From a virus (taxonomy: Duplodnaviria; Heunggongvirae; Uroviricota; Caudoviricetes): a DNA stretch of 21,272 nucleotides. A model generated the notes under the pieces. The model did not search any database and was not told where the DNA came from. It saw only the letters and a list, made by a program, of their open reading frames with translations. The position numbers were made by a program, and so were the translations under genes. Positions within the stretch are counted from its first letter, which is position 1. Each line of letters opens with the position of its first letter. Positions 1 to 9,890 of the stretch are shown here, piece after piece. The DNA lies in IMG/VR virus record IMGVR_UViG_2617270964_000007, positions 1 through 21,272 of that record; one strand, written 5' to 3'.

Positions 1-1254
1 ATGCTGGAACAAATGGGCATTGCCGCGAAGCAAGCCTCGTATAAATTAGCGCAACTCTCCAGCCGCGAAAAAAATCGCGTGCTGGAAAAAATCGCCGATG
101 AACTGGAAGCACAAAGCGAAATCATCCTCAACGCTAACGCCCAGGATGTTGCTGACGCGCGAGCCAATGGCCTTAGCGAAGCGATGCTTGACCGTCTGGC
201 ACTGACGCCCGCACGGCTGAAAGGCATTGCCGACGATGTACGCCAGGTGTGTAACCTCGCCGATCCGGTGGGGCAGGTAATCGATGGCGGCGTACTGGAC
301 AGCGGCCTGCGTCTTGAGCGTCGTCGCGTACCGCTGGGGGTTATTGGCGTGATTTATGAAGCGCGCCCGAACGTGACGGTTGATGTCGCTTCGCTGTGCC
401 TGAAAACCGGTAATGCGGTGATCCTGCGTGGTGGCAAAGAAACCTGTCGCACTAACGCGGCAACGGTGGCGGTGATTCAGGACGCCCTGAAATCCTGTGG
501 CTTACCGGCGGGTGCCGTGCAGGCGATTGATAATCCTGACCGTGCGCTGGTCAGTGAAATGCTGCGTATGGATAAATACATCGACATGCTGATCCCGCGT
601 GGTGGCGCTGGTTTGCATAAACTGTGCCGTGAACAGTCGACAATCCCGGTGATCACAGGTGGTATAGGCGTATGCCATATTTACGTTGATGAAAGTGTAG
701 AGATCGCTGAAGCATTAAAAGTGATCGTCAACGCGAAAACTCAGCGTCCGAGCACATGTAATACGGTTGAAACGTTGCTGGTGAATAAAAACATCGCCGA
801 TAGCTTCCTGCCCGCATTAAGCAAACAAATGGCGGAAAGCGGCGTGACATTACACGCAGATGCAGCTGCACTGGCGCAGTTGCAGGCAGGCCCTGCGAAG
901 GTGGTTGCTGTTAAAGCCGAAGAGTATGACGATGAGTTTCTGTCATTAGATTTGAACGTCAAAATCGTCAGCGATCTTGACGATGCCATCGCCCATATTC
1001 GTGAACACGGCACACAACACTCCGATGCGATCCTGACCCGCGATATGCGCAACGCCCAGCGTTTTGTTAACGAAGTGGATTCGTCCGCTGTTTACGTTAA
1101 CGCCTCTACGCGTTTTACCGACGGCGGCCAGTTTGGTCTGGGTGCGGAAGTGGCGGTAAGCACACAAAAACTCCACGCGCGTGGCCCAATGGGGCTGGAA
1201 GCACTGACCACTTACAAGTGGATCGGCATTGGTGATTACACCATTCGTGCGTAA
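1..1254 (+). CDS. proA: Gamma-glutamyl phosphate reductase (glutamate-5-semialdehyde dehydrogenase), complete 417 aa
   Basis: Full-length ORF starting with ATG at position 1. The translation ([16 protein letters not shown]...GDYTIRA) matches enterobacterial ProA as I recall it, including length. Chromosomal gene flanking the prophage. Confidence 0.93.
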
Positions 1255-1368: not shown

Positions 1369-1444
1369 GCCGATATAGCTCAGTTGGTAGAGCAGCGCAT
1401 TCGTAATGCGAAGGTCGTAGGTTCGACTCCTATTATCGGCACCA
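1369..1444 (+). tRNA. thrW: tRNA-Thr, anticodon CGU, 76 nt including encoded CCA
   Basis: GCCGATATAGCTCAGTTGGTAGAGCAGCGCATTCGTAATGCGAAGGTCGTAGGTTCGACTCCTATTATCGGCACCA folds as a cloverleaf: 7-bp acceptor stem GCCGATA/TATCGGC, anticodon loop with CGT, T-arm GGTTCGACTCC. It lies downstream of proA, as thrW does in E. coli, and is a known integration site for P22-type integrases. Confidence 0.9.
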
Positions 1445-1458: not shown

Positions 1459-2619
1459 TTACCCCATATTTAAATACACCACGTTCTCCTCTTGTGCCGT
1501 ATTTGTGCCATTGCGACTTATAATCGCATCGATTTTGCTTGCGTGCTCGGTGAGATGCCCGGCTGAAAGGTGGGCGTATCTTTGAACCATTTCGAGAGTT
1601 TCCCATCCTCCCATCTCTTTAAGTGCAAGAAGAGAGACACCGGACTGAACCAGCCAGCTTGCCCAGGTATGCCTCAGATCATGGAAGCGGAAGTTACTAA
1701 TGCCTGCCCGCTTTAACGCTCCCTTCCATGCCTTGTTGCTGTCGGTTCTCATCTTCCTTACCGCTGCTGTTTTTGTTCCGTCGCTTCGGTAGGCAGGTTT
1801 GGTGTGGACAAATACCCATCTCTTATGGAGCCCCTGCTGTTTTCTTAATATCTGGCATGCGGTTTCGTTAAGAGGAACTCCGATCGCATTGCCAGCTTTT
1901 GTTTCATCAGGGTGTATCCATGCCATTTTCTTATCCAGATCGACCTGTGACCACTCAAGGTCTGTAACGTTGGAACGGCGAAGGCCTGTCGTGATTGCAA
2001 ACATGACCACAGGGAAGAAGTGAGGAGCAATTTCTGCAAACAGGCGCTTCGATTCCTCCTCTGTAAGCCATCTGATGCGTCCATTCTTAACGCGTGGTGT
2101 TGATATTTTGGGTGCCCTGTCAAGCCATCCCCATTCAACAGCCATATTGAGAATGGCGCGAAGTATTGCCAGATGCCTCGTCTTCGTTCCTTTGCTTGCA
2201 AGCTTTGGTTTATACTCCGGCACCGGATTGCCAAGTCGCAAACACCTGTCCCGGCTCATCTCCCAGTTCAGGCGATGGCGGCGGTTTTCCATCCCATCTA
2301 CCGCCTCCATTATTTTTTCTGTTGTTATGTCAGAGAGAATGGCTTCTCTGAAGTGCAACATCCAGAACGATATAATGCTCTTGTCATCATCAATGGACTT
2401 CTTATCCGATTTCTCACGCAGCCACCGTATGCAGGCTTCCTTGAATAGCTTTTTCGGTGATTCCCCGAGATTTTTTACTCTCCACGCTTCTGCTTTCAGA
2501 CGATCGTGAAGTTCTTGCGCTTGCCTTTTGTCCGATGTTTCAAGAGAGCGTCTAACTCTTGATCCATCTGGCGCGACGAAATCGCAGTGCCACGTGCCAC
2601 CGCGTAGTTTGATTGACAT
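1459..2619 (-). CDS. int: Tyrosine-type site-specific integrase (P22/CP4-6 IntF-like), 386 aa
   Basis: ATG at 2619 preceded by AGGAGG. C-terminal catalytic region HDLRHTWASWLVQSGVSLLALKEMGGWETLEMVQRYAHLS carries the tyrosine-recombinase HxxR...Y signature. Position next to a tRNA att site. Confidence 0.9.
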   Translation of the reverse strand: MSIKLRGGTWHCDFVAPDGSRVRRSLETSDKRQAQELHDRLKAEAWRVKNLGESPKKLFKEACIRWLREKSDKKSIDDDKSIISFWMLHFREAILSDITTEKIMEAVDGMENRRHRLNWEMSRDRCLRLGNPVPEYKPKLASKGTKTRHLAILRAILNMAVEWGWLDRAPKISTPRVKNGRIRWLTEEESKRLFAEIAPHFFPVVMFAITTGLRRSNVTDLEWSQVDLDKKMAWIHPDETKAGNAIGVPLNETACQILRKQQGLHKRWVFVHTKPAYRSDGTKTAAVRKMRTDSNKAWKGALKRAGISNFRFHDLRHTWASWLVQSGVSLLALKEMGGWETLEMVQRYAHLSAGHLTEHASKIDAIISRNGTNTAQEENVVYLNMG

Positions 2620-5179: not shown

Positions 5180-5662
5180 TTATTTGATAAGAAGTGAAGG
5201 TTTCCCAACTTTGAGTTGAGCGCCGGGGATATTTATTCCTGCTTTTAGTTGGTGTTTGATTGCCAGTTTGTCGGCTTTAATTGTCGTTTCAAACTCAACG
5301 TATTCAGGAGGAAGGGCGCTTGAGTCGATTATTTCTACAATTTCTGACGGTTTGCGGATTGTTACCTGGTGAATACCTGCTCGAATATTTTTCTTGCCAA
5401 CCATTTCAAGCGATGACGCTATATATGATTTGATGCTGTCAATCTTATTTTGAATTACTGCGGCTCGCTCATTTAGTGACTTTGCCTCTTCCTTGAGGCG
5501 TTCAGCATAACCATATTCATTTTTAATAATGGCAAGAAGTTGCTCTATTTTATCGGTAAATTCTCCTTCCATGCCTTCTATTGTGTCAGCAATCATCTCT
5601 GGCTCTAAATCTGAATCCATCAGCTTTGCATATTCATTGGCTATTTCATACAGTTTGCTCAC
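5180..5662 (-). CDS. Siphovirus Gp157-family protein (recombination-module accessory), about 160 aa, probable GTG start
   Basis: Coiled-coil-rich sequence immediately downstream of recT. AGAGGT lies 5 nt upstream of the GTG at 5662. Gp157-family proteins commonly accompany RecT/Sak recombinases. Confidence 0.55.
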   Translation of the reverse strand: MSKLYEIANEYAKLMDSDLEPEMIADTIEGMEGEFTDKIEQLLAIIKNEYGYAERLKEEAKSLNERAAVIQNKIDSIKSYIASSLEMVGKKNIRAGIHQVTIRKPSEIVEIIDSSALPPEYVEFETTIKADKLAIKHQLKAGINIPGAQLKVGKPSLLIK

Positions 5663-6548
5663 TGGCAACCTCTAGTTTCGCTTTGCATTCTATGTAAATG
5701 GCTTGTACGTTCTGCTGCAATTTCATTCCAGATGTCAGGCGATATGCTTCTGCAAAATATCGCTTCAAATCATCCATGTTTTCTGCCTGAGCCATTTCAT
5801 CACAAAGAAGTTGTGCTTTTTCCATAATTTCCTGCTGGTGTTTCCGTTCATCTTCGCGGATATCTTCCTCTGATTTGTGCGGCATAACTGGTTCCTGATG
5901 CATACCTTCATCTTCGTTAAGCAGGTGAATGGCATTATCCAGTCGCTGGGCTTTAGGCCAGTATTTGCTGGCGCGTTTAACTATTGTTTTACGCGCCATC
6001 TCTTCCCAGAATGTTTTCCACGGTCCATTCTTTGCCTTGCTCGTTGCTTCCACTGCTTTAATTTCTGCCAGACTCATTTCTTCAGTCAGGTAGTCACCAT
6101 CTGCTGTTTTTACCGTGCAATAACCACCAACAATAGAGCCTCGCTCTCCAAATGCGTTGTATTTGTGAGTTGGTGCTGAATCAAGGCCGTTTGATTCATA
6201 GGTGTCGTTTGAGTACACCAGTTTGCATTGCCCCCACTTAATTGATCCTGTCGATTGCGCAAGATGAAGTAATCCCATGTAACTGATATCAAGGCACACC
6301 ATGCCGTCGCGAGGAACCAGATAAGCTAGTTTGCTGGCCGGGTTTAAGGTGATGCCGATCGCCGCAACATTGATGATGGCGTTCTGTGCGCTGGTTGGAT
6401 TTGCCAGTGCTGTTTTAGCCAGGTAATCGTTTTTCTGGAAATACTGAATTGCAAACTGGCTTTCCTTAGCCCATGTCACCGTCTGTTCAGTCAATGCTCC
6501 GCAGAATAACTGCTCTTGCTGTTTAACGAATTCAACGATATTGCTCAT
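5646..6548 (-). CDS. recT: RecT-family single-strand annealing recombinase, 300 aa
   Basis: ATG at 6548 with GGAGAAG upstream. The translation has the RecT/Red-beta core as I recognise it (…PRDGMVCLDISYMGLLHLA…FGERGSIVGGYC…). It sits in the recombination position of the leftward early operon. Confidence 0.8.
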   Translation of the reverse strand: MSNIVEFVKQQEQLFCGALTEQTVTWAKESQFAIQYFQKNDYLAKTALANPTSAQNAIINVAAIGITLNPASKLAYLVPRDGMVCLDISYMGLLHLAQSTGSIKWGQCKLVYSNDTYESNGLDSAPTHKYNAFGERGSIVGGYCTVKTADGDYLTEEMSLAEIKAVEATSKAKNGPWKTFWEEMARKTIVKRASKYWPKAQRLDNAIHLLNEDEGMHQEPVMPHKSEEDIREDERKHQQEIMEKAQLLCDEMAQAENMDDLKRYFAEAYRLTSGMKLQQNVQAIYIECKAKLEVASEQTV

Positions 6549-6856
6549 GCAGCTTCTCCATAAATATGTCTGCGTTTGAATATTGCGAAGGCATATTCAG
6601 CCTTAACTCTTTCGGTTATTGCATCCCAGAACCATTCAGCGGCTTTTTCCTGATAGTTACAGTCATCATCTTCCAGCCAGTCGATAGCGTCCTTAGTGTG
6701 TTCATCTGGTTTATATGAGCGAAGCATTTCGCTTATTGGGTCGCAACGTTTGCAGAGGCGATCAACTTCACTGTTGATTCGCTCGTAATCTTCATCAGTA
6801 AAACTTGCGATTATTTGCGATATTTCACGCTTATCATTCAGAGTCAGAATCATCAT
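6545..6856 (-). CDS. Hypothetical acidic protein, 103 aa
   Basis: ATG-ATG start at 6856 with AGGAGA upstream. Translationally coupled to recT (ATGA overlap). No family recognised. Confidence 0.5.
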   Translation of the reverse strand: MMILTLNDKREISQIIASFTDEDYERINSEVDRLCKRCDPISEMLRSYKPDEHTKDAIDWLEDDDCNYQEKAAEWFWDAITERVKAEYAFAIFKRRHIYGEAA

Positions 6857-6941
6857 CTTTCTCCTGTTCTTTGTGCTGATTGAGCATTTCTTTCATCTGA
6901 CGAATGAATTCTTCGTCTGACCAGTTATCTGTAAAACTCAT
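6834..6941 (-). CDS. Small hypothetical protein, 35 aa, acidic C-terminus
   Basis: Start overlaps the stop of the upstream Kil-like ORF (ATGA). The short SD spacing makes it uncertain. Confidence 0.2.
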   Translation of the reverse strand: MSFTDNWSDEEFIRQMKEMLNQHKEQEKDDDSDSE

Positions 6942-7090
6942 TTCCTGCGATACCATGGAAGGTTGATAGCTGATTTCATCGCTTTATTTGCTTCAAGCCA
7001 CATTTTTGAATCACCAATAAATCGGGCTATTACTGCTTTGTTTTGTGCAGCACGAAGCATCTGGTGATTGATGGCTATTTCATTGCGCAT
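6938..7090 (-). CDS. Small protein, possibly Kil-like (50 aa)
   Basis: ATG at 7090 with GGAGG 5 nt upstream. The segment IARFIGDSKMW resembles what I recall of lambda Kil, but the recollection is uncertain. Its position, just promoter-distal of the CIII-like ORF, matches lambda gene order. Confidence 0.35.
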   Translation of the reverse strand: MRNEIAINHQMLRAAQNKAVIARFIGDSKMWLEANKAMKSAINLPWYRRK

Positions 7091-7209
7091 AACGCCTCCA
7101 GTTGTTTCTTTGCTGCTCTGATTAATTGTTTAACTCGGCGTGATAATTCAGATTCGTGCGGGGAGAAAGCGGACATGACGCCGCTACCCGCGAGCTGAAA
7201 GTGCATCAT
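7075..7209 (-). CDS. Small protein, possibly CIII-like FtsH inhibitor (44 aa)
   Basis: ATG at 7209 with AAGGAG upstream. The translation MMHFQLAGSGVMSAFSPHESELSRRVKQLIRAAKKQLEAL echoes the lambda CIII pattern (…AIAG…SESLLERITRKLRDGWKRL…) as an amphipathic helix after an AG-rich start. Confidence 0.4.
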   Translation of the reverse strand: MMHFQLAGSGVMSAFSPHESELSRRVKQLIRAAKKQLEALCAMK

Positions 7210-7292
7210 GGGTAACTCCTTATATTTGATTGCATAACGAAAACGCCTCAAGTGAAGCGTTATTGGTATGCGGTAAAGCCGCGCTCAGGCGG

Positions 7293-7541
7293 CTACTCTA
7301 TTTCTTCTTCGAATGATTTTATTAGCCGGTCAATAACATCATCTGTTTCAATATCATTTCCGTCTGATTGCTTTAATACGTCTATTGATTCTGCTGCGGT
7401 AAATTCCATCGCTGTGAGAAACTCGACAATTGCACACTCAACGACATGTCGTTCTTCATCTGTACGACATGAGATAAAAGAGCATTTAATTGCTGTTATT
7501 ACTTTTTGTTTAAGTTCTGCAGGATAATCAGTTTTTATCAT
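7293..7541 (-). CDS. Hypothetical acidic protein, 82 aa
   Basis: ATG at 7541 with GGAG 7 nt upstream. It is the first gene after the intrinsic terminator at 7555-7584. No family recognised. Confidence 0.5.
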   Translation of the reverse strand: MIKTDYPAELKQKVITAIKCSFISCRTDEERHVVECAIVEFLTAMEFTAAESIDVLKQSDGNDIETDDVIDRLIKSFEEEIE

Positions 7542-7554
7542 CGTTTACTCCGTC

Positions 7555-7584
7555 AAAAAAAATTGCCCTCACACTGGAGGGCAA
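7555..7584 (-). terminator. Rho-independent terminator in the leftward early operon (tL-like)
   Basis: On the minus strand an 8-bp stem (TTGCCCTC / GAGGGCAA, 6-nt loop) is followed by a run of 8 U. It lies between the 7687-8157 gene and downstream early genes, so N-dependent readthrough would be needed. Confidence 0.6.
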
Positions 7585-7686
7585 AGAAGATTTCCAATAA
7601 TCAGAACAAGTCGGCTCCTGTTTAGTTACGAGCGACATTGCTCCGTGTATTCACTCGTTGGAATGAATACACAGTGCTTATTCGTA

Positions 7687-8157
7687 CTAATAAAACACCC
7701 AGTTTTCTGTTTCTTGGTTGTGTCCAAAGTTATATTCAATATCTGGTGTTGATGTATCAATATTCTTCATCCCATCAACAAGAGTTGATACAACAGCCAA
7801 ATCTTGTTTGATTCTCATTAAATGGTATTTCTTCCGGCGAAATAAACTTTCAATGGCAAGTTTCTTCGTTGGGAATGCAAAAGATCTTTCTGCATTTTTT
7901 GCTACTTTCTTAATTGCATATCTATTTCTCTTTTGTTTCCATTCCTGTAACCACTGATTTGGTGCTGGTTTAAAATTAACGATCCAATACGCAGGAACCA
8001 ACCATGCATAATGCTCTGTCTGATGAAAAGCTATATATTGAAGTGCGAATATTTTGATTCCATCTTCTTCAACTGTCGCCTGGAATCTCCAGAAAACAGG
8101 CATTCCATCATGTTCAGTTTCTGATTCAGGAAAAGGTACGCTCCATGATATTGTCAT
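7687..8157 (-). CDS. Hypothetical protein, 156 aa, moron-like gene in the N-proximal region (the position occupied by ral/sieB in lambda)
   Basis: ATG at 8157 with GAGGTG upstream. The gene is visibly AT-rich compared with its neighbours and is followed by a hairpin and an intrinsic terminator. I recognise no family. Confidence 0.55.
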   Translation of the reverse strand: MTISWSVPFPESETEHDGMPVFWRFQATVEEDGIKIFALQYIAFHQTEHYAWLVPAYWIVNFKPAPNQWLQEWKQKRNRYAIKKVAKNAERSFAFPTKKLAIESLFRRKKYHLMRIKQDLAVVSTLVDGMKNIDTSTPDIEYNFGHNQETENWVFY

Positions 8158-8447: not shown

Positions 8448-8720
8448 TTACCTCGCCGTCAGTTGTTTTGATTTCCGGTAGCCTGCCGCGTAAATGGCTA
8501 CGTTTGGCAGGCAAATACTTCCGCTGCATTCATCTGCCTTCTTGCAGCGAAGGCTTCCGAGTGATGCTGCTTTATCTGCTCTGACGCAACCAGAGAGCTT
8601 TAGCGCAATCTTTCGCGCCAGTCGCTGTTCTTGCATTGCCTGTTCACGTTGAGCCTGTCTGCGTGCTCTGCGGCGATTTCTGGCGTTATCGTCAGCCAGA
8701 TATGTAATGACTACTGTCAT
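8448..8720 (-). CDS. N: N-like transcription antitermination protein with arginine-rich motif, 90 aa
   Basis: ATG at 8720 with GGAGGT upstream; the track ORF extends further 5' into the leader. It contains the arginine-rich motif NARNRRRARRQAQREQ near the N-terminus, and the ends (MTVVITY… / …YAAGYRKSKQLTAR) resemble P22 gp24 as I recall it. It is the first gene downstream of pL and nutL. Confidence 0.65.
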   Translation of the reverse strand: MTVVITYLADDNARNRRRARRQAQREQAMQEQRLARKIALKLSGCVRADKAASLGSLRCKKADECSGSICLPNVAIYAAGYRKSKQLTAR

Positions 8721-9031: not shown

Positions 9032-9072
9032 TCCCGCATTTCGGCGGGACAATCCCATCAATGTTAAAGAGC
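9032..9072 (-). promoter_or_regulatory. nutL: nutL: boxA (GGCTCTTTAACA) and boxB hairpin (UCCCGCCGAAAUGCGGGA) on the leftward transcript
   Basis: Read on the minus strand, boxA at 9072-9062 matches the boxA consensus (TGCTCTTTAACA) in 11 of 12 positions. It is followed by a boxB stem-loop at 9049-9032 identical to the boxB found after cro at 10189-10206. Confidence 0.6.
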
Positions 9073-9119
9073 CTGCCAATCTGTTCCGTTTAGCTACCAG
9101 CGTCCTGCTGATGGCTTAA

Positions 9120-9201
9120 ATTTAAGATCTCTTTAATTAATGGTCAAGAGTATTTTTGAAGAAAACTTAAATTTTCTTTCGTAACTTAAGTTTGGCTTTG
9201 A
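9120..9201 (-). promoter_or_regulatory. oL/pL region: P22-type operators and leftward early promoter
   Basis: An 18-bp site ATTTAAGATCTCTTTAAT (9120-9137) fits ANTNAAG-N4-CTTNANT. A second site (9155-9172, TTTGAAGAAAACTTAAAT) has one mismatch, and a weaker third lies near 9184-9201. On the minus strand TTGACC (complement of 9142-9147), a 16-nt spacer and TTAAAT (complement of 9120-9125) form a sigma70-like promoter pointing at nutL and N. Confidence 0.6.
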
Positions 9202-9215
9202 TTTTTAAAGGAAAT

Positions 9216-9240
9216 AAAAAAAAAGGGGCGAATGCCCCCT
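9216..9240 (-). terminator. Rho-independent terminator at the 3' end of the repressor gene
   Basis: On the minus strand the hairpin GGGGGCATTCGCCCC overlaps the cI stop and is followed by 9 U (A-run 9216-9224 on the plus strand). It would insulate pL from repressor-gene transcription. Confidence 0.6.
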
Positions 9241-9890
9241 TATGGAAGGTTTGCTAGTTTTGCATCGACAACTACGCCGATGATTTTGCAGTTTCCGTTG
9301 ATCTCGATCATCGGATATTGTGGGTTAAGTGGTTTTAGAAACTTCCTGCCTGCATCAATAACTAACTTCTTGAAAGTTGCCTCGTTTTCTCCTTCGAGCT
9401 TTGCAACTACCAGTTTCCCGTTACGCGGCTCTACTTCAGGATCGACGAGTATTATCATTCCTTCAGGGATACTGAGACCGGCCGGAGCCGTCATTGAGTC
9501 TCCCTTCACGTCCAACCAAAACGAATCTTCTGAACAGTCTACGGTTGTATCGTACCAGTTATCTATTGCACGCTTATGATATGGTTCTACAGCTTCCATC
9601 CAGCATCCTGCGCTCACCCAGCTAATCAGAGGGTATGACCCTCTTGGATCATGCCTACTGTGATAGGCAATGTTTGAAAGACTTTCCTCTCCTTTCATCA
9701 GATAGTCAGGGGAACACTTCAACGCATTAGCCAGGGCGAGAAGATTCTCTCCATTTGGCTCTGTCTCAGAGCGTTCCCACTGAGATATGGCAACATTAGA
9801 CACGCCGACCATCTTTCCAAGTGCGGCCTGCCTGATCTTGAGTTCTTTTCTCCGAGCGCGAATGCGCTCTCCCATCAATTGAGTTTTCAT
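9240..9890 (-). CDS. c2: Phage repressor, P22 C2-type (HTH_XRE N-terminal domain plus LexA-like S24 autopeptidase domain), 216 aa
   Basis: HTH segment LKIRQAALGKMVGVSNVAISQWERSE. The C-terminal domain has the S24 catalytic motif GDSM and a downstream Lys (…VVAKLEG…). The whole protein closely resembles P22 C2 as I recall it. It is divergent from cro across operator sites. Confidence 0.9.
   Translation of the reverse strand: MKTQLMGERIRARRKELKIRQAALGKMVGVSNVAISQWERSETEPNGENLLALANALKCSPDYLMKGEESLSNIAYHSRHDPRGSYPLISWVSAGCWMEAVEPYHKRAIDNWYDTTVDCSEDSFWLDVKGDSMTAPAGLSIPEGMIILVDPEVEPRNGKLVVAKLEGENEATFKKLVIDAGRKFLKPLNPQYPMIEINGNCKIIGVVVDAKLANLP

Follow-up and report, generated by a model that had tools for sequence, protein, structure and literature searches.

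An HK022-class cIII-kil cluster and its neighboring small genes in the probable pL operon of a P22-like prophage at tRNA-Thr

CIII of the lambdoid phages is a competitive inhibitor of FtsH (PMC1838920). CIII proteins are split into two classes, a lambda class and an HK022 class, the latter with HK022, HK97, and H-19B as founders, all three of which have an identical CIII (Kobiler et al. 2007, PMC1838920). Kil, a protein with a helix-turn-helix core, blocks FtsZ via ZipA (PMC3961180, PMC11762379). The DNA considered here, referred to as the window, is the whole stretch of 21,272 nucleotides (nt) of a Caudoviricetes record (IMG/VR IMGVR_UViG_2617270964_000007, positions 1 to 21,272). It holds a lambdoid prophage at a tRNA-Thr(CGU) gene, with an integrase, cI, O, a DnaB-like helicase, and Q present, and a cluster of small open reading frames (ORFs) in this prophage is the subject of this report. 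With a probability of roughly 0.88, the cluster belongs to the delayed-early genes of a pL operon, in a lambdoid, P22-like prophage integrated at the tRNA-Thr gene, and comprises cIII, kil, and genes for proteins of 82 and 35 residues. The initial annotation, made from the sequence alone, had placed four small ORFs here, and the coordinates and frames it gave are correct; the ORFs lie on the minus strand and encode 82, 44, 50, and 35 residues. The central features are the following:

7555 to 7584, minus strand: intrinsic, tL-like terminator, an 8-base-pair (bp) G+C-rich stem followed by T8 (terminator scan; hairpin 7584-7563)
7293 to 7541, minus strand: gene for an acidic protein of 82 residues, a predicted four-helix bundle, carried by a cassette of about 283 nt
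7242 to 7261, minus strand: 8-bp hairpin in the cIII leader, followed by UUUUCGUU (scan)
7075 to 7209, minus strand: cIII, assigned to the HK022 class, 44 residues (PF08134, expect value (E) 2e-28; phrog_550, E 9e-13)
6938 to 7090, minus strand: kil, 50 residues (PF06301, E 1.7e-20; phrog_2055, E 1.2e-35)
6834 to 6941, minus strand: acidic ORF of 35 residues in the position of P22 arf (Kapi1_014; phrog_17766, E 7.5e-16)

The cIII-kil cluster is already known and is nearly letter for letter that of HK97 and HK022. The DNA of phage Kapi1 is 98% identical, and there the five ORFs from the 82-residue gene to the 102-residue gene occur in the same order and are all annotated (Kapi1_013 to Kapi1_017). 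This 98% identity of the DNA in phages that annotate these ORFs, together with the Pfam E values of 2e-28 for CIII and 1.7e-20 for Kil, indicates that the cluster is more than a chance grouping. Of 5,426 complete Escherichia coli genomes, 2,267 contain parts of the segment, as do 328 phage records.

The cIII gene starts with the ATG at 7209, 6 nt after an AAGGAG (7221-7216), and ends with TAG at 7077-7075. Its product matches PF08134 over the full profile (positions 1-37 of 37) with 98.3 bits, compared to a cut-off of 25, and shares 43 of its 44 residues with HK97 CIII, the sole substitution being Tyr16 to Ser. The profile search thus upholds the CIII-like identity first proposed for this ORF. 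The more specific likeness to lambda CIII holds at the level of the CIII family, but not at that of the lambda class: PF02061, the profile of that class, gives only 13.1 bits (E 0.11), under its cut-off of 25.7, and BLAST of this CIII against lambda CIII returns no alignment. By its sequence, then, the 44-residue CIII is assigned to the HK022 class rather than to the lambda class. As neither BLAST nor PF02061 ties this protein to the lambda class, FtsH inhibition is inferred through its class and through shared motifs. This CIII, lambda CIII, and P22 C3 all have an N-terminal AG, an ES.L.R...L segment, and, across residues 21-38, an amphipathic helix, whose peak hydrophobic moment is 0.72 in this CIII versus 0.83 for the same residues of lambda CIII. 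By alignment, both the amphipathic helix, for which residues 14-37 are essential in lambda, and the conserved N-terminal glycines are present. The gene also lies where cIII is expected: within the pL operon, beyond N and a terminator, and directly upstream of kil, which it overlaps.

The start of cIII has been annotated in more than one way. The longest ORF in its frame begins at TTG 7251 and would encode 58 residues, and versions of 61 residues are annotated in Kapi1 (L001 3176-3361) and HK446 (L003 2188-2373), so that the real CIII might be a longer product of 58 to 61 residues from an upstream start. However, this is very improbable. The 61-residue annotations arise because a C-to-T change in the stem of the leader hairpin creates an upstream ATG in Kapi1 and HK446, and this ATG is not found in the window. 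In addition, the AAGGAG is positioned 6 nt ahead of ATG 7209, the match to PF08134 starts with residue 2 of the 44-residue form, and 44 residues is the annotated length in both HK97 and HK022. The 44-residue form is likely to be the real product in Kapi1 and HK446 as well. A cIII of the lambda type (ending ...LWDILKQQGRP), with kil absent, occurs in about half of loci L011-L090 and in mEpX1 (L005 2039-2200); the mEpX1 annotation runs this gene through the terminator to give a 91-residue product.

The kil gene starts at ATG 7090, 16 nt inside cIII, and stops with TGA at 6940-6938; a GGAGG at 7099-7095 precedes the start with a 4-nt spacer. Both cIII and kil therefore have Shine-Dalgarno sequences, AAGGAG and GGAGG, as had been noted for these two ORFs. 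The Kil protein matches the Lambda_Kil profile PF06301 with 72.6 bits (cut-off 27.6) and is identical to HK97 Kil at 50 of 50 residues, so the suspicion that an ORF containing FIGD might be Kil was justified. Over the core of lambda Kil, 17 of 30 residues (57%) are identical, including the FIGD.KM turn, and the sequence contains the helix-turn-helix core, with its FIGD turn, as that core is defined in PMC11762379.

The overlaps continue along the chain. After the 16 nt shared by cIII and kil, kil and the 35-residue ORF overlap by 4 nt (ATGA), the latter and a 103-residue ORF by 20-23 nt, and the 103-residue ORF and recT again by 4 nt (ATGA). The description of the junctions as ATGA or similar is thus correct for kil and the 35-residue ORF, but not for cIII and kil, and the chain extends past 6834, through the 103-residue ORF into recT. 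For comparison, the overlaps in lambda are 32 nt (cIII/kil) and 46 nt (kil/gam), and those in P22 are 20 nt (c3/kil), 11 nt (kil/arf), and 4 nt (arf/erf). Because lambda and P22 show the same gene compaction, coupled translation is plausible here, and the overlapping stop and start codons make it likely along the chain. The features that surround the small genes are as follows:

5646 to 6548, minus strand: recT-family single-strand annealing protein, next in the chain (PF03837, E 2.6e-33)
6545 to 6856, minus strand: acidic ORF of 102/103 residues (phrog_3486, E 1.7e-59; annotated in Kapi1 and mEpX1)
7645 to 7672, minus strand: perfect 12-bp hairpin with a 4-nt loop (RNA fold)
8448 to 8720, minus strand: N-like antiterminator of 90 residues, ATG at 8720, with an arginine-rich motif (PF25694 N_peptide, E 2.7e-15; phrog_271, E 4e-35)
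9033 to 9073, minus strand: nutL-like site, a boxA-like GCTCTTTAA and then a hairpin CCCGCCGAAATGCGGG (read from the sequence)
9119 to 9147, minus strand: pL-like promoter, TTGACC / 17 nt / TAAATT (consensus scan; pL by position only)

Left of cI there are, in order, the pL-like promoter, the nutL-like site, the N-like gene, two ORFs, the terminator, and the small genes. The pL-like promoter sits downstream of a gene for a cI-like (LexA-like) repressor (9240-9890), which matches Peptidase_S24 and HTH_3, and the ATG of the N-like antiterminator has a GGAGG upstream. A Gp157/Mu-Gam-like protein (Gp157 E 5.9e-37) and RecT come after the small genes. The 103-residue ORF, which has no Pfam match, always accompanies the 35-residue ORF and RecT, and is a further uncharacterized member of the recombination module. 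The tRNA-Thr(CGU) gene (1369-1444, plus strand) is flanked by a host gene of the aldehyde-dehydrogenase family (proA-like, 1-1254, plus strand) and by the tyrosine integrase gene (1459-2619, minus strand). This integration site is presumably the thrW-type attachment site of P22-like phages.

This arrangement suggests how the region would work. Transcripts from pL would reach the small genes only by N-like readthrough of the terminator at 7584-7563, and such readthrough would take place after infection or induction and not in the lysogen. By homology, CIII, as an amphipathic-helix peptide, would then competitively inhibit host FtsH, so that CII is stabilized and lysogeny is favored, and Kil, as a helix-turn-helix peptide, would block assembly of the FtsZ ring in a ZipA-dependent manner, so that induced cells filament. 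The 35-residue acidic peptide would head the recombination module (the 103-residue ORF, RecT, and the Gp157/Mu-Gam-like protein), most likely in an Arf-like accessory role, and the acidic, predicted four-helix protein of 82 residues is encoded on an optional cassette. The identities of the genes, their overlaps, the terminator, the boundaries of the cassette, and the conservation of the segment are shown; the biochemical activities, the dependence on N, the coupling, and any function of the 35- and 82-residue proteins are inferred. In RNA sequencing of a Kapi1 lysogen, kil, CIII, Kapi1_017 (82 residues), and Kapi1_014 (35 residues) were all undetected (PMC12922286), and such silence is what a repressed pL and an intervening terminator predict.

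Several points weigh against this account of the region. First, CIII falls under the PF02061 threshold and has no likeness to lambda CIII that BLAST can detect. Second, the C-terminus of Kil (...NLPWYRRK) is basic and lacks the RSK/RSSK motif reported to be important in lambda-type Kil. Third, the 4-nt spacer of the kil Shine-Dalgarno sequence is short and the 35-residue ORF has no usable Shine-Dalgarno sequence, and for these reasons translation of both may depend wholly on coupling. Finally, the Pfam Arf profile PF17585 is not hit by the 35-residue ORF or its family at E values up to 10, and the substitution counts on this ORF, given below, are too small to demonstrate purifying selection.

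In HK97 and mEpX1 the annotation marks this terminator hairpin as a terminator, and across about 80 loci its stem is kept and its loop varies. The perfect 12-bp hairpin lies about 60 nt upstream of it, in a non-coding block of about 125 nt (7563-7687) that ends in the terminator; this block is near-identical in HK97, Kapi1, and mEpX1, though the upstream genes differ. The 12-bp hairpin could be a site for RNase III or some other element of RNA processing or regulation. In HK446 and Kapi1, the cIII leader hairpin has a compensatory change from C-G to U-A, and its loop varies across about 80 loci. This pattern suggests a conserved RNA structure, which may serve as a weak second terminator or as a translational control element. 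A translational control element has been described for lambda cIII. An Rfam search around the hairpins and the terminator gave no family matches. An ORF of 36 residues that crosses the terminator (7528-7638) was judged spurious; the length of the T-run differs between phages, which shifts its frame.

The 82-residue ORF is the first ORF after the terminator hairpin and its T8, and it is indeed acidic, as had been noted, with an isoelectric point (pI) of 4.35 and 20 D+E versus 9 K+R. It starts with ATG 7541, preceded by GGAG at 7551-7548 with a 6-nt spacer. Compared to HK97 and mEpX1, the window has an extra stretch of about 283 nt (about 7270-7560), cleanly inserted between the T-run of the terminator and the cIII leader. 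This insertion, a cassette that HK97 does not have, holds the 82-residue ORF, its Shine-Dalgarno sequence, and a trailing hairpin, found by an inverted-repeat scan and in the sequence:

7277 to 7294, minus strand: hairpin AGCCGC-CTGAGC-GCGGCT, without a T-run, part of the cassette

The hairpin begins at the last base of the 82-residue stop codon and is found only where the cassette is present. The cassette with its ORF occurs in 3 of 80 related loci. An exhaustive search of 1.84 billion proteins shows a small family, with 16 cluster representatives, none of them informative. Its members include proteins 35-42% identical to the 82-residue one, from virulent siphophages of Salmonella and Klebsiella. 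In the one examined, the Salmonella phage SeSz-2 (Skatevirus; L091 2501-2761), a 42%-identical homolog opens an early operon, ahead of ParB-like and RusA-like genes. A plus-strand ORF of 91 residues runs antisense to the 82-residue gene.

PHROG and some GenBank records label the 82-residue protein as anti-restriction: phrog_14587 is called "anti-restriction protein" and the copy in phage ECP1 is named "antirestriction protein ral". A Ral-like role would fit a small, acidic protein whose gene lies between N and cIII, in the optional-gene region that holds ral in lambda and P22, and whose Skatevirus homolog opens an early operon. Nevertheless, such a role is improbable. The protein shows no similarity to lambda Ral and no hit to Pfam, including PF11058 (Ral), or to NCBIfam, and on these findings an identity with Ral was rejected; its predicted fold, a four-helix bundle of generic type, matches no anti-restriction protein, and the literature searched contained no test of anti-restriction activity for this protein. 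Moreover, a "ral protein" label is also attached to the unrelated cIII gene in the mEpX1 note, suggesting that the label has been propagated. The "anti-restriction" label is therefore unsupported. The same is true of the suggestion that the 35- or 82-residue ORF targets nucleases, FtsH, or FtsZ. The former resembles the P22 recombination accessory gene arf in position and in one motif, and the latter has no informative relative.

The 35-residue ORF starts at ATG 6941-6939, overlaps the kil TGA as ATGA, and stops at 6834; upstream of it there is just an AGGA at poor spacing. HK97 gp42 (83 residues), HK446 gp33 (56 residues), and a 60-residue Salmonella-phage protein share its first 18 residues (MSFTDNWSDEEFIRQMKE), and beyond residue 18 it diverges completely from all three. 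The conserved N-terminal peptide of 16-18 residues, MSFTDNWSDEEFIRQM, is thus joined to several different tails. In all 80 IMG/VR loci, the ORF is intact and ATGA-fused to the preceding stop. In about half of the 80 loci, kil is the gene ahead of it; in the rest, which have no kil, that gene is a lambda-type cIII. A third type of upstream gene, an unrelated ORF of 54 residues (MKKPTYEELEEALKELRR...), is likewise joined to it by ATGA (L092 1139-1303, L095 1340-1504). One protein of 69 residues, P0098, consists of the N-terminal 31 residues of this ORF fused to the C-terminal part of the 103-residue ORF, apparently because the two genes, which overlap, lost the DNA between their DDD-coding repeats.

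Searches with the 35-residue ORF used a 40-residue version with an upstream start and an alignment. The ORF and P22 Arf share an (F/W)SDEEFI motif in register as well as the same position in the gene order, and the position is that of a small ORF between kil and a strand-annealing gene with overlapping junctions. All 5 of 5 family members give weak matches, in the same register, to the Arf PHROG phrog_2445 (E 0.03-0.07), and hhalign against Arf yields P 9.4e-4 and a probability of 22%. This N-terminus also occurs alongside Erf in HK97 and sal4. Homology between the 35-residue ORF and Arf is not established; the ORF is probably real, a small gene translated by coupling whose role may be accessory, like that of Arf.

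In another explanation, the ORF has no function, and its first 50 or so conserved nt are a linker at a module boundary for lambdoid recombination, with the frame incidental. Mosaic breakpoints do fall right around this segment, the homology with HK97 and HK446 stops after codon 18, three or four unrelated tails (35, 56, 60, and 83 residues) follow the shared start, and three different genes are found upstream. Selection was tested with 80 viral loci and 8 reference sequences, which reduce to 15 distinct sequences; among these, 4 variants are synonymous and 12 are non-synonymous, and the ratio of non-synonymous to synonymous polymorphism (pN/pS) in the more divergent copies ranges from 0.2 to 2.8, the counts being too low for interpretation. 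Within codons 17-28, synonymous changes do not outnumber non-synonymous ones, and the start of the next gene restricts change in the last 21 nt. On the other hand, the frame is unbroken in every one of more than 85 sequences, its start is ATGA-fused to the preceding stop whichever gene comes before, residues 7-16 (WSDEEFIRQM) are near-invariant as protein while synonymous changes occur, and P22 Arf, for which there is genetic evidence of function, has the same motif and position. A non-functional linker is accordingly a possibility of some weight, although on the unlikely side, and a real gene with an Arf-like role is the preferred reading. A bolder proposal, and a rather unlikely one, is that the conserved N-terminal peptide may be a portable recombination cofactor of the Arf type, coupled to any preceding gene and serving RecT here and Erf in HK97. 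If true, P22 Arf, which has long been unexplained, would gain a wider family and a minimal motif that can be tested. Separately, and just as speculatively, the 82-residue protein could be a new early host-takeover or anti-defense factor common with the virulent Skatevirus phages.

The discovery value of the cluster is small: HK022-class cIII and kil date, in sequence and in name, from HK022 and HK97, and all five genes are annotated in Kapi1. Its practical value concerns annotation. In most RefSeq E. coli genomes kil is labelled, whereas the cIII, 35-residue, and 82-residue ORFs are "hypothetical" or uncalled. In the RefSeq records, the Prokaryotic Genome Annotation Pipeline (PGAP) names kil but usually calls HK022-class cIII "hypothetical protein"; the name FtsH-inhibitory factor CIII is given in 1 of 15 records among the matches listed. 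Neither peptide is hit by an NCBIfam model. Also to be corrected are the false long N-terminus of cIII in some phage records and the unsupported anti-restriction label.

Together, these comparisons relate the locus to several known systems. Kapi1 differs by a few substitutions, by other genes upstream of the terminator, and by integration at argW, in contrast to tRNA-Thr here. The cIII genes of HK022, HK97, and H-19B have the same length, Shine-Dalgarno sequence, leader hairpin, 16-nt kil overlap, and place in the pL operon, whereas in the window the 82-residue cassette separates cIII from the terminator. With lambda CIII and P22 C3, this CIII shares the (I/L)AG N-terminal motif, the ES.L.R...L segment, the amphipathic helix, the position in the operon, and an overlap with kil, but it is 10 residues shorter and lacks the NQPGVP tail. 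As in lambda, kil starts inside the 3' end of cIII and its product contains the FIGD turn; unlike lambda Kil, this protein has eight extra N-terminal residues and ends in LPWYRRK instead of an RSSK-containing tail, and its gene precedes the 35-residue ORF rather than gam. Finally, P22 Arf (47 residues, PF17585) is, like the product of the 35-residue ORF, a small acidic peptide encoded directly after kil and before a recombinase module with overlapping junctions; the C-terminal halves of the two are unrelated, the partner of Arf is Erf whereas the recombinase here is RecT, and the 103-residue ORF intervenes in the window.

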